DNA of 64,000 bases from Candidatus Krumholzibacteriia bacterium (GTDB lineage Bacteria > Krumholzibacteriota > Krumholzibacteriia > JAJRXK01), in contig JBGPIA010000002.1 in NCBI GenBank assembly GCA_041484665.1, forward strand, positions 728,287 to 792,286, read 5' to 3'. The position numbers were made by a program. Shown one piece after another: positions 51,001-54,000 of this stretch (position 1 is the stretch's first letter; each line of letters starts with the position of its first letter).

Positions 51001-54000
51001 CGACAGGGTTGGCGAGGCGCTGGGAACGAGGATGGACGGGCCGACGGAGGTGGTGGCAGCGGGGGCGGCCGCTGATCCGTAGGCGCCTTCCGCGGCACGG
51101 ACAGATGCTCCCATAGCCTCCATCGAATTACAATACTGGCACATCACCATTCCATCGCCCCTGAGGCTTCAACACGCTTCCCGGACCCTGTTTGCTCCAA
51201 GACGCGCAATCGCGCCAGGACTGCTGACAGACCATTCCGGGGGACCCGTGGCTGACCGTGCTGATGCGCCTGTGGCCACCGCCGCGTCGCGAAAGCGTCG
51301 GAGCGGAGTTTGTGCGCGCCCTCCTTCACGGATTCCGGGCGCGCTCGATTTTCTCGCTGTTTCGCGGGAGTACGACGTCGGCCTATGTGTGTCGTTTGGC
51401 CCTCGGCGCTCGCTAAGCGATTGACGTAGATGTATTAGCTATCCGACTATGATGCTATGGACCGTTGCTCGAAGGCGTCAGCGCGCCCTGCATGGCGACT
51501 GGCGCTCTTCGCCCAGTCGCAGGGCGAGCGCGCCGGCTGCCAGAGCTGACAGTGACCCAGATTCAGCAGCCGCCATCCTGGGAGCGCGCGATGCAGACGC
51601 CCGCGTCTCCGCCGGCGTAGATCAGCTCGGCCGCCACGTAGATACTCCCGTTCTCCGCAATGTCCATGGAGTAACCGGTATAGACGAGGGATCCGCTGCC
51701 CACCCCGATCTGGGTCGTTGGGATGGACCACGTGACCTACTTGGTCGTCCCCACCGATGTCATCCGACGGAGGGGGTGTGCGTGCTGCTGCTGAGTTCGC
51801 CGCGGCCAGGACGAGGCAAGCGGTTGCCGCAATGCGGAACGGGGACTCCATGGCAGGACCTCCGATCGTTGGTCCATCGCTGGCAGGGTTGCCTGCGTGC
51901 CGGGCCGCGCCCGGGGGCCTGAGTACGCAGGGAAGCCGCCGCGGGAACCTTCGCTCCGCCGATTGGCTTATTCCCGTGGCAGCGCTATCGTGGAGGCCCG
52001 TGCGGCGCCCGCCGCGGCGGTCGCAGCGCCGTCCTCTACAGCCGCGGGCCTCGCGCGGGTGGAATCCCCAGGCAGGAAGGAAGAGCGATGACTGAATCTC
52101 GTGGGACTGCGCTCTCGGCGCGGCGTTCCGCCCACGGTGCCCGCCTGGCGGGTCCGTTCGCCACAGCCCTGCTGGGCCTGCTCGTGGCCGGTGCGGCGGG
52201 CCGCGCCGACGCTACCGGGACGCTCGGCGAGGCGGCGGCCGATTTCATACTGACCGACACGAACGGCCAGCTTCGCTCGCTCAGCTCGTATCGCGGCAAC
52301 GTGGTGGTGCTGTTCCTGTTGGGCTATGGCTGACCAACCTGCCGTGCCTCGGGACCCGGTACGGAGTCCTTCTCCCAATCGTACGCTGGCCAACCTTTCC
52401 AGATGCTGGGCTTGGACTGCTGGAACGGCACTCTACCCCAGGCGCAGAGCTTCGTGAGCGCTACCGGCGTGACCTACCCGGTACTGCAACGCGCCTCGCT
52501 GGCACCGCCCGACGGCGGCAATGTCTACGTGACGTACAACACGGGCTACGAGGCGTTCTTCGTGGTCGACGGCAACGGCATCATCCGCTACCGCAAGACT
52601 ACCGGAACGGTGCCCCGCTGGGACCCGGTCGGGGTGGGCCAGGCCGTTGATGCTGCGCTGTATGCTCTGCGCACCTCGGTGGAAGCGCGCCCAGCGGAGC
52701 GGCGGTCCACGCTGCAGTCGCCCTTTCCCAATCCGTTCAACCCTACGACCACGATCCCCTACGAGCTGCACGGCGACGGGCAAACCGTTGTGGTCTCGCT
52801 GCGCATCCTGGATTTGCAGGGGCGCCTGGTGCGCAGCCTCGTCGACTGGGCTCAGACGTCGGGTCAGCGGTATGAAGCCCACTGGGATGGCCGGGACGCC
52901 GCCGGCCAATCTGTGGCCAGCGGCGCCTACATCGCCGAGCTGACGGTCGACGGCGATTCGCAGGGGCGCTTCCTCTCCTTGATCAAGTAGGTCTCCGCTG
53001 CGGCGCGGGAAGGCGGTGCAGGAGGTGCCGCCGCAGCCTGGCCGACGCCGCCTGCGTGGGGTGGAGGATCACGATGGAAATGCGAGCTGCAGCACCGCGG
53101 AGCATCTGGTCGCGCCCGCGGACGGCCCTGCCGAGGATGGTGTTCTTGTTCGCCGCGGTGGCGAGCGCGAGCGGTCTCGCCGCCGGCGAGGTACCGCGCG
53201 CCCAGGACTCCGTGCCTTCCGCCGTCGCACCCGCGTCGCTCTTGGGAGATCACGGCAGAGCCCCGCAGTTCCAGGCCGAGCGCTACGACGGCGGCCGGGT
53301 CGCTCTGAGGGAGCTGCTGCAGAAAGGCCCGGTCATCGTCGATTTCTGGGCTACCTGGTGCGTGCCCTGCAAGCGAGCGCTGCCGCACTACCAGGCGCTG
53401 CAGCAGCGCTATGCGGAGCGCGGAGTCGCCGTACTGCTCATCAGCCTGGACGACCCGCGCAGCCAGCCCAAGATCGGCCCCTACGTGAAGTCGCAGAAGC
53501 TCACTCTCCCCGTGTTGCTCGATGCGCAGAAGCAGGTTTCGCGGTTGTTCCAGGTGAGCGATATCCCGTCGACCTTCCTGATCTCGCCCACCGGGCGGAT
53601 CGTCGCCGTACATGTGGGTTACAACGACGGCGACGAAGCGCTGCTGGAGCGAGAGCTACGCGAACTACTCGGGCTTCCCCCGCTTCCCGAACAGGCGACG
53701 CCGGTTGCGCCCGCGCCCGGTGGATCCGCGCCGGGGGGATCCGCACGGGGCCGGTCCGCGCCGGGCGCGGCCACACCCGAGAGGGCAAAGGACGGGTCCG
53801 GCTGGTGAGACGGCGCACCGCGTCGGGGCCACGCCGTGCGGCCCTCGTCTTCGGGCTGCTGATGCTGCCTCCCGCCGCAGGCGCAAGCCCGCTCGACGAT
53901 CAGGGCGCGGTGCAGGGCACGAACCTGCTCCTCTACGAGTTTGGACGGGATCCCACCCAGGAAGCGCAGGATCGCACCAAGCTCTTCGACCAGCTCCGGG

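Follow-up and report, generated by a model that had tools for sequence, protein, structure and literature searches.

The closest described counterparts of the redoxin reported here are the UxxC selenoprotein families of a 2026 catalogue (PMC13188914), which have the same Pfam families, the UxxC motif, and a UxxU variant. On the other hand, a type IX secretion system (T9SS) or FlgD tail appears in the name of no entry among the 119, a distinction drawn from the descriptions, and the words 'secret' and 'periplasm' are absent from the main text. Among the NCBIfam selenoprotein models, none reached its cut-off for the redoxin; the best, WAxxUGC, matched 4 of 23 family members weakly. The ResA/TlpA/CcmG reductases fed by DsbD/CcdA share the fold, an N-terminal export signal, and a two-thiol site, and the TlpA encoded next to the redoxin belongs there; the redoxin itself differs in having selenocysteine (Sec) first, GYG for WA(T/S)W, D/E/H in place of the cis-proline, and an added tail. 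According to PMC2907840, HBP35 of Porphyromonas gingivalis is a known Cys thioredoxin that is a T9SS cargo: it combines a thioredoxin motif with a conserved C-terminal domain and reaches the surface, but is Cys-only, hemin-binding, and from a canonical T9SS host, the likeness being one of description. Sec outside the cytoplasm is found in SaoB, SaoC, and SaoX of the SAO system (bioRxiv 10.1101/2022.07.06.499078) and in the FCYXU TonB-dependent receptor (PMC13188914, Table 1); these are lipoproteins, ABC parts, and a receptor, none of them described as T9SS-type cargo or as linked to a Cys-pair barrel. Exported Sec proteins are therefore already known in bacteria, while the tailed architecture is absent from the catalogue. 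The T9SS of Bacteroidota shares SprA, PorU, PorV, and cargo with a signal peptide and a C-terminal β-sandwich, but here the models used detected no GldK/M/N, PorP, or PorZ, and the tail belongs to the FlgD_ig type. MtrCAB-type porin-cytochrome conduits consist of a periplasmic donor, a large barrel, and a surface acceptor. They resemble the layout proposed below, but this has no hemes and its carrier would be the Cys pair of a barrel; the resemblance is one of working, not of homology. In a literature search, neither the redoxin nor its trio with TlpA and barrel was found described (the supplement lists of PMC12013277 and PMC13188914 may hold members). The same search, mostly confined to literature outside subscription journals, returned no T9SS selenoprotein, no relevant T9SS outside Bacteroidota, and no outer-membrane thiol relay, and the accessible parts of the PorA papers (PMC7712824, PMC12152298) do not describe the barrel or TlpA of this unit.

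The window (the whole stretch of 64,000 nucleotides that was analyzed) contains the following features of the redoxin gene.

52074..52083, + strand: RBS-like purine-rich stretch preceding the ATG at 52088, read from the sequence
52088..52990, + strand: predicted selenocysteine redoxin gene of 300 codons (signal peptide, UxxC thioredoxin-fold domain, and FlgD_ig/T9SS type A-like tail)
52088..52213, + strand: predicted signal peptide, by inspection (basic n-region followed by a hydrophobic h-region, with A-x-A ahead of residue 43)
52214..52675, + strand: Redoxin/AhpC-TSA thioredoxin-fold domain with the TGA inside (Pfam over cut-off; fold match to ResA 2f9s)
52331..52342, + strand: putative active site U82-P-T-C85, with the TGA at 52331-52333 (TGA in 33/33 copies; relatives have Cys at this position)
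52352..52369, + strand: SECIS-like hairpin ~24 nt past the UGA, with a G-led apical loop and a bulged A (covariation; fold energy)
52550..52552, + strand: E155, at the position of the thioredoxin cis-proline (family alignments)
52706..52987, + strand: C-terminal β-sandwich tail, FlgD_ig/T9SS type A-like (profiles; predicted structure)

The reading frame runs from the ATG at 52088 through the in-frame TGA (codon 82) to a TAG stop ending at 52990, and translation with TGA as U gives 300 residues with the motif GYG-U-PTC. It was split by the gene caller into ORFs of 81 aa (52088-52333) and 195 aa (52403-52990), which the genome-wide survey's note had rejoined (g01446 and g01447) as one 300-codon TGA gene with Sec at residue 82. 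This was confirmed by the retention of the TGA in all 33 copies compared, and the lack of an RBS before the second ORF was borne out by the upstream sequence, in which no RBS-like stretch preceded the internal ATG at 52403. The AlphaFold model of the fused protein had two domains and a mean pLDDT of 87, with low values for residues 1-40. It can be regarded as confirmed by sequence comparison that callers split a single gene encoding a predicted exported, Sec-containing thioredoxin-like protein.

The 33 copies come from the 30 best loci (L008-L037, including the copy of the window); the TGA is aligned to residue 82 in every one, and both of its flanks are conserved as protein at 38-55% identity. 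A redoxin match was present in 160 of the 208 genomes of the Krumholzibacteriota phylum set, and a TGA, counted by hand, lay inside 79 of the 82 matches at E ≤ 1e-15 in that search. Contrary to the survey's statement that no full-length Cys form exists, full-length CxxC forms occur among the relatives: Cys occupied the place of residue 82 in 138 of 149 aligned database proteins, 67 of which had a like tail motif, and two Cys-form relatives lie inside the phylum. AxxC was found in 5 database relatives and UxxU at one locus (L030), and a 77-row tree implies at least 7 switches between the Sec and Cys states. The host genome encodes SelA, SelB, SelD, and tRNA-Sec (SelC) over cut-off, and SelA was found in 200 of the 208 phylum genomes. 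In a hand-picked set (the genomes of 44 of the 79 barrel loci described below), SelB (20) or SelA (3) was detected in all 23 TGA-form genomes, and neither in 9 of 21 Cys-form genomes. Sequence features expected of a bacterial selenoprotein were thus found: an in-frame UGA with conserved coding on both sides, Cys homologues, and SelA/B/C/D. We conclude from these comparisons that UGA-82 is almost certainly read as Sec by means of the host SelA/B/C/D and a small hairpin inside the coding sequence, so that the product has a thioredoxin fold and a U82/C85 site. At the least, this adds a large family of exported selenoproteins, cut in two by annotation, in a phylum where SelA is nearly universal. 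A changed code (UGA as Trp or Gly) was rejected because TGA ends 110 of the 198 tailed genes and no tRNA other than tRNA-Sec was called with a TCA anticodon. No further convincing TGA-split tailed gene was seen among 14 inspected of the 121 tailed ORFs preceded by TGA.

The bacterial SECIS model (PMC13188914, section 5) specifies a loop of 3-9 nt with G in the first two places, 16-37 nt past the UGA, at ≤ -7.5 kcal/mol. The hairpin at 52352..52369 meets this model (-7.5 to -8.7 kcal/mol), and its covariation was 0.297, compared with 0.158 for shuffled and at most 0.108 for slid alignments. With a structure drawn from the same sequences as those counted, the model fitted 46 of 47 Sec forms and 8 of 29 Cys forms; at GC ≥ 0.6 it also fitted 6 of 7 Cys forms, so that its specificity is low at high GC. 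The loop-glycine codon was GGT in 31 of 37 Sec forms versus 3 of 16 Cys forms. The fold of -15 kcal/mol reported by the survey did not hold: the single-sequence fold of 70-116 nt past the UGA was no more stable than those of shuffles (z +0.76). RNAalifold on 42 aligned copies gave no consensus pairs, probably because the hairpin occurs in two registers, with the loop at codon +7 or +9. A SECIS-like hairpin is therefore indicated, but shows only by comparison among copies and not in a single fold.

The fused protein exceeded the Pfam cut-offs for Redoxin (PF08534; 45.5 vs 26.6 bits) and AhpC-TSA (PF00578; 45.4 vs 26). The fold, CxxC-type site, and export signal of the TlpA/ResA/DsbE proteins were all present, although the NCBIfam cut-offs were not reached: 33.3 vs 170 bits for ResA, 21.5 vs 230 for TlpA, and 21.1 vs 359 for DsbE. 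ResA 2f9s was a close fold match (Z 18.5, rmsd 1.9, 137 aligned), tied with the peroxiredoxins AhpE and Bcp (Z 18.2 and 17.8, respectively). The cis-proline before the third core strand is missing: no proline occurred there in 23, 56, and 49 aligned family rows, and the 23 rows had 16 D, 4 H, 2 E, and 1 S (E155 here), whereas the cis-proline was kept in 54 of 54 neighboring TlpA genes. The earlier description as a TlpA/ResA-like oxidoreductase consequently stands for the fold, but the protein is not a canonical TlpA because this proline is replaced. The replacement suggests a narrow partner or a small substrate rather than general protein-disulfide reduction.

A hydrophobic N-terminal stretch was present in the homologues, 28 of 33 of which matched an A-x-A-like pattern; this supports the signal peptide noted by the survey, which, judged by inspection and conservation, very probably takes the redoxin to the periplasm. 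The tail exceeded the FlgD_ig cut-off (34 vs 27 bits), but not those of T9SS tails (Por_Secre_tail PF18962, 16 vs 27; TIGR04183, 19.3 vs 23). The family profile matched the T9SS cargo tails 8glk_D and 8glj_D (E 1e-5 and 2e-5, respectively), and a single tail sequence gave the PorU tail at E 0.0056 versus FlgD at E 0.011; redoxin-domain matches took up the whole-model fold searches, which hence carry no information on the tail. The tail was present in 25 of 33 homologues, with a short tail instead in 7, and a like tail ends 191 ORFs of the host genome. This genome has SprA (484.5 vs 200 bits), PorU (454.9 vs 420), and PorV (63.4 vs 27) over cut-off, with porU immediately before porV, and every one of the 18 genomes tested had SprA over cut-off. 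GldM, GldN, and PorP were not found in the host genome, which is 93.65% complete and in which divergent forms could escape, though a Bacteroidales control was detected; GldK was over cut-off in none of 61 phylum genomes, and no PorZ was found at E ≤ 1e-12 in the host genome. In Bacteroidota, GldL/M are reported to be essential (PMC12398890). T9SS-mediated secretion to the surface, as claimed by the survey, is accordingly strengthened by SprA/PorU/PorV and the 191 like tails and weakened by the components not found and the scores below T9SS cut-offs. Delivery to the surface by this route is plausible from the profiles: the tail rather likely directs the redoxin through the SprA-PorV translocon, and PorU may clip it. 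These results point to a type IX-like exporter seemingly working without the known motor.

Two further genes, absent from the survey's note, follow the redoxin gene.

53074..53808, + strand: TlpA-like reductase, predicted periplasmic, with WCVPC as its CxxC site and the cis-proline retained (ResA model, E 1.7e-26)
53805..55463, + strand: DUF6029 outer-membrane β-barrel of ~24 strands (Pfam DUF6029, 50.6 vs 27 bits; model pLDDT 91.8)
55392..55409, + strand: C-x4-C pair of the barrel, on a hairpin within the loop that leads into the last strand and is predicted to be extracellular (conservation and secondary structure)

The GTG start of the barrel gene overlaps the TlpA stop. The nearest folds of the barrel were usher translocation domains (Z 17.8, rmsd 4.6, 359 aligned), with Wzi also among the matches (Z 13.0), and the model had a wide lumen with no plug and no TonB-type domain. 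The side on which the Cys loop lies was deduced from the way short turns alternate with long loops. The Cys motif was counted in 75 of 79 loci, a number biased because the motif was one of the two scan patterns; we relied instead on an alignment in which the pair was invariant in 74 of 74 sequences. PF19494 (DUF6029) was carried by 58 of 59 database relatives, and a barrel match occurred in only 50 of the 208 phylum genomes. The 79 barrel loci, which came from a scan of a genome collection with the barrel, had TlpA in 72 and the redoxin in 71 (the latter in 54 of the 56 loci with 2.5 kb of sequence on each side), 63 of these 71 redoxin loci carrying the tail; ~20 of the loci appear to be genomes already in the phylum searches, and the two sets are therefore not independent. 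Gene order varied, the redoxin lying upstream, downstream, or divergent of the barrel. Among 32 close redoxin homologues, TlpA or the barrel was directly downstream in 18, and neither was found within the 0.1-1.8 kb of sequence available for the other 14. The unit of three genes occurs across several bacterial phyla in Sec and Cys versions. Linkage is what is observed, and from it we infer that the redoxin in all likelihood works with the downstream-encoded TlpA and DUF6029 barrel. When one relative's barrel and its redoxin, a natural Cys form, were modeled as a complex, the median was 0.30 against a mark of 0.32, and this result was given no weight either way.

A surface selenoprotein poses the question of how its selenol stays reduced beyond the outer membrane, to which the conserved TlpA and DUF6029 barrel suggest a solution. 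In the reading that we prefer, though tentatively, DsbD, which is encoded in the host genome, would pass electrons at the inner membrane to the periplasmic TlpA, and TlpA would reduce the invariant Cys pair of the barrel. The Cys loop at the surface may be able to reach down into the lumen, which is wide and has no plug, and the pair would then re-reduce the redoxin, whose selenol would be kept ready to reduce disulfides or other oxidized thiol targets outside the cell. The lost cis-proline speaks against ordinary disulfide exchange in such a relay. Against the relay, too, loop disulfides of outer-membrane barrels are often purely structural. The only paper found to name DUF6029 (PMC9603273) links it, moreover, to polysaccharide export, some Wzi-like barrels near polysaccharide export genes resembling DUF6029. 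The broader idea that the three genes conduct electrons through the outer membrane without heme, with a swinging Cys pair in a 24-stranded barrel and a stripped-down type IX display, is slightly less likely than the relay; if true, it would take the DsbD cascade past the periplasm and would occur, in both a Sec and a Cys form, throughout much of the FCB group. Since Cys versions of the unit are found in cultured, named bacteria (Gracilimonas mengyeensis, L162; Aliifodinibius, L163), the question is open to bench work without growing the uncultured host.

The main rival of the relay is capture of a metal or metalloid, in which the exported U/C site and the acidic or His residue at the cis-proline place would bind a soft metal at the surface and hand it to the Cys pair of the barrel, TlpA keeping the ligands reduced or releasing the metal in the periplasm. 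The cis-proline reportedly prevents metal binding by CxxC thiolates (PMC2665069 and PMC2757866), and its consistent replacement by D, E, or H, the wide barrel with invariant Cys, and the UxxU form would all fit. This nevertheless appears unlikely: ten neighbor regions of 11-14 kb, assessed by reading rather than by family scores, had no metal-transport or metal-regulator gene as a steady neighbor, the barrel model lacks a plug or TonB-type domain, and 5 database relatives have AxxC.

It is similarly doubtful that both redoxins serve envelope housekeeping by forming, guarding, or shuffling disulfides of the barrel or of exported cargo. The barrel Cys pair would then be structural and the barrel would export or import another substrate, e.g., polysaccharide, with the selenoprotein acting perhaps in the periplasm or at the translocon mouth. 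The resemblance of DUF6029 to Wzi-like barrels and the Wzi fold match agree with this, as do the T9SS motor and ring not found and the 191 tailed proteins that would need disulfide care. On the other hand, two dedicated redoxins are kept with one barrel despite changes of gene order in several phyla, which exceeds the need of a structural disulfide; none of the ten regions read showed a polysaccharide cluster, and the tail on most redoxin loci points outward.

A stand-alone surface antioxidant, whose selenol would reduce peroxides and be regenerated by small thiols leaking through the barrel with no direct protein relay, is improbable. The ties with AhpE and Bcp, an arginine beside the cis-proline place in 34 of 56 Cys forms, and the many redoxin copies away from a barrel favor it, but the place of the peroxiredoxin arginine itself is D/E/H, the redoxin of the window has neither an arginine there nor a PxxxTxxC/U motif, and each peroxiredoxin model matched at most 1 of 23 family members.

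Finally, two genes or a pseudogene, with an 81-residue ORF stopping at the TGA and a separate 195-residue tailed protein, can hardly be maintained: TGA is the commonest stop in the genome and the pieces are stored as separate database proteins (P0104, P0007), but the TGA cuts a single fold at the catalytic residue, recurs at the same codon in every divergent copy where relatives have Cys, and is tied to Sec genes, and the second piece has neither an RBS nor a signal peptide.

A promoter scan found no promoter at the locus, and two terminator-like sites were present, a number expected by chance. Elsewhere in the host genome, the SelD gene itself carries a TGA.

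The redoxin gene (plus strand) runs from an ATG at 52088 through an in-frame TGA at 52331-52333 to a TAG at 52988-52990, as read from the sequence, and the features bearing on it are:

52352-52369, SECIS-like hairpin, energy between -7.5 and -8.7 kcal/mol, its loop led by G and lying about 24 nt past the UGA
53074-53808, TlpA-like CxxC protein, downstream of redoxin
53805-55463, DUF6029 protein (the barrel), start overlapping the TlpA stop

When the TGA was taken as selenocysteine, a 300-residue product with the motif GYG-U-PTC was obtained. The split into two called ORFs, described in the genome-wide survey's note, was confirmed from the gene calls, and the second ORF indeed lacked an RBS, an RBS-like stretch being found before the first ATG only. 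The joined protein scored above the Pfam cut-offs for Redoxin, AhpC-TSA and FlgD_ig, below that for Por_Secre_tail, and reached no NCBIfam cut-off. In an AlphaFold model (U replaced by C; mean pLDDT 87), a thioredoxin-fold domain spanned the TGA and was followed by a C-terminal beta-sandwich.

When 208 phylum genomes were searched reading through stops, redoxin matches were detected in 160, and TGA was present in 79 of the 82 matches with E<=1e-15 (manual count). The codon aligned to residue 82 was TGA in 33/33 copies (30 best loci, window copy counted); TGA in relatives has thus been read in DNA, and the doubt over unseen upstream DNA is removed. The survey's claim that there was no full-length Cys form did not hold: two close Cys forms (loci L046 and L047) were found inside the phylum, and 138 of 149 aligned library proteins (from the best 150) had CxxC at the site; 67 carried a like tail motif. 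One cluster member was named from Ca. Marinimicrobia. When 77 domains were placed on a tree with the active site masked, the Sec/Cys state switched 11 times, at least 7 of them by well supported branches. In 44 genomes hand-picked from the 79 barrel loci (see below), SelB (20) or SelA (3) was found in 23/23 with the TGA form, and neither in 9/21 with the Cys form. The host genome (93.65% complete) contained SelA, SelB, SelD and tRNA-Sec, all above cut-offs, and its SelD gene itself contains TGA; since TGA is still its main stop codon, recoding is local. SelA was detected in 200/208 phylum genomes (125/125 of the high-quality ones), indicating near-universal selenocysteine use across a phylum that has had little study. 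Judged from sequence, the redoxin is thus a real, well supported selenoprotein, and the reading as one gene with a selenocysteine codon stands on the TGA copies, the Cys relatives and the Sec genes of the host.

The hairpin after the UGA, previously noted as weak, was not better than shuffles when the region was folded singly, and RNAalifold on 42 redoxin copies gave no consensus structure; nevertheless, comparison of copies does show a small hairpin at the sequence level, which agrees with the bacterial SECIS model in section 5 of PMC13188914. On 40 distinct rows, pairing reached 81.3% of cells with covariation of 0.297; shuffling gave 72.9% and 0.158, and sliding no more than 51.3% and 0.108, the score being favoured by a structure derived from the very sequences scored. 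One pair, between the synonymous third base of one codon and the first base of a codon further on, occurred in four Watson-Crick forms. In an independent comparison of the copies linked to a barrel, a hairpin that fits the model was found in 46/47 Sec vs 8/29 Cys forms (30/30 vs 6/7 at GC>=0.6; 16/17 vs 2/22 below 0.6). The glycine 7 codons past the site was GGT in 31/37 Sec vs 3/16 Cys forms (kin included, rows non-independent), and the GGT share at other glycines in those genes was 14% and 20%, respectively; the window copy has GGA there, its loop lying two codons further on. In one member (L030:798-809), both active-site codons are TGA (UxxU), and the codons that form the hairpin follow them as elsewhere. 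Loci L051-L056 and L062 form a second subfamily of exported proteins, which are long (open frames of ~550-1000 codons) and have FFANW-U-PVC towards the end of the sequence; the hairpin is strongly conserved in them, and most carry a sorting tail.

The folds nearest to the redoxin model tied at Z 17.8-18.5: ResA, DsbE-like proteins, and the peroxiredoxins AhpE and Bcp. The cis-proline place of thioredoxins is E155 in the window redoxin and D/E/H/S across the family, with proline in 0 of 23, 56 and 49 family rows; the neighboring TlpA genes keep it (54/54). In PMC2665069 and PMC2757866, cis-proline is reported to aid substrate binding and release and to bar metals from thiolates, and peroxiredoxins to have arginine there. 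The redoxin thus belongs neither to the canonical TlpA/ResA proteins nor to the peroxiredoxins, and metal binding has to be taken seriously as a rival; from the survey's TlpA/ResA-like oxidoreductase, the ResA-like fold was retained, but not the class. A further TGA-split redoxin (L063:1194-1253, minus strand; FWHPT-U-PAC) keeps cis-proline and ends a longer protein.

Homologues have a hydrophobic stretch ahead of the redoxin domain, with an A-x-A-like site in 28/33, and the 33 C-terminal ends comprised 25 long tails, 7 short W-x-x-K tails and one second TGA as the end. The short W-G/S-x-x-K-x-x-Y terminus, possibly a second sorting signal, was found in these 7/33 close copies and some Cys forms (L014, L017, L026, L028, L035, L037, L046, L060). 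The full-length family profile matched two solved T9SS cargo tails; with the tail alone, the PorU tail and FlgD matched about equally well. A similar terminal tail is carried by 191 host ORFs. Type IX genes of the host (G000) were:

C3:123955-131475 and C2:447223-452619, SprA and the porU-porV pair (porV immediately after porU), profile matches over cut-off
C3:77920-79338, second, weaker PorV-like gene, profile match

By eye, genes around the latter resemble a TonB-dependent receptor and ExbB/ExbD. GldM, GldN and PorP gave no match in the host, the same models finding matches in a Bacteroidales genome; PorZ was also unmatched in the host, and GldK was above cut-off in 0/61 phylum genomes. SprA was above cut-off in 18/18 tested genomes and GldM in 1/18, GldM being absent also from Balneolaceae genomes with strong SprA. 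Since SprA, PorU and PorV are present and GldK/M/N were unfound, the host appears to have the core of a type IX system in its outer membrane but no recognised motor (GldK/M/N searched). The motor is called essential in Bacteroidota by reviews (PMC12398890); another energy source may drive a type IX-like system. The survey's T9SS export accordingly fits SprA/PorU/PorV and the like tails, but not the missed Por_Secre_tail cut-off or the unfound GldK/M/N, PorP and PorZ; delivery of the redoxin to the cell surface is probable.

TlpA and/or the barrel lay right downstream in 18/32 close homologues, several others having little downstream sequence. The DUF6029 model (pLDDT 91.8) was a plugless barrel of ~24 strands (own count), with usher pores as the closest folds. 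Its C-x4-C pair, kept in 74/74 aligned sequences, was placed on the hairpin preceding the final strand, on the long-loop side, and is therefore predicted to be extracellular. From a barrel scan of species genomes, 79 loci were kept out of 232 confirmed, including Krumholzibacteriota, Eisenbacteria, KSB1, Calditrichota, Balneolaceae, Bacteroidales, Latescibacterota and Gemmatimonadota; loci close to the window's were also titled Fibrobacteraceae or just bacterium. TlpA was found in 72/79 and redoxin in 71/79 (TGA form at 46, Cys form at 27, tail at 63), or in 53/56 and 54/56, respectively, where 2.5 kb was available on both sides. Since this linkage survives rearrangement, the redoxin being upstream, downstream or divergent, it points to a shared function, and the trio is a conserved three-gene envelope unit. 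The barrel matched in only 50/208 phylum genomes, the redoxin family being broader than the unit. Another barrel family, more distantly related, is suggested by about 25 weak matches to the barrel (E 1e-11 to 1e-16; frames of ~650-690 codons for the most part; genomes G104, G127, G153, G144 and others). In genome G166 (L025/L091), both redoxin tail and barrel are frame-shifted, by sequencing error or decay.

The best reading, held tentatively, is a relay that builds on the recoding signs, parts and gene linkage observed here: DsbD, whose gene is located elsewhere in the host genome, would hand electrons to TlpA, TlpA would pass reduction to the cysteine pair of the barrel, and this pair would re-reduce the selenol of the surface redoxin. 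For this relay we infer location, direction and any direct contact; it is testable in cultured carriers of the Cys form. Metal capture and uptake by the unit is somewhat unlikely; it draws on the loss from the redoxin of the cis-proline reported to keep metals off thiolates (PMC2665069, PMC2757866). Disulfide housekeeping, in which the disulfide of the barrel would be structural and the barrel would carry something else, such as polysaccharide (PMC9603273), is unlikely. A free-standing surface antioxidant is less likely still, and two separate genes, beside TGA in every aligned close copy, hardly credible.

UxxC redoxin selenoproteins are already catalogued (PMC13188914), exported selenoproteins are known (bioRxiv 10.1101/2022.07.06.499078), and HBP35 is a Cys thioredoxin carried by T9SS (PMC2907840), whereas the window redoxin combines selenocysteine with a T9SS-like tail. 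The main text of the deep-Sep paper (PMC12013277) contains neither TlpA, FlgD, T9SS nor 'secret', and a search outside most subscription journals and supplements found no publication on a T9SS-tailed selenoprotein or the redoxin-TlpA-barrel trio. The redoxin thus adds a form with a T9SS-like tail to the known UxxC redoxin selenoproteins.

The window region 44063-63492 is rich in further tailed genes:

44063-46552, tailed gene
46650-51098, tailed gene, FG-GAP repeats, ASPIC
55813-57222, tailed gene, M10-like peptidase
59048-59509, tailed gene
60817-63492, tailed gene

A 101-codon ORF at 60140-60445 resembles the beginning of an IS21-type transposase and adjoins a fragment of a possible ATPase (region 59409-60445).
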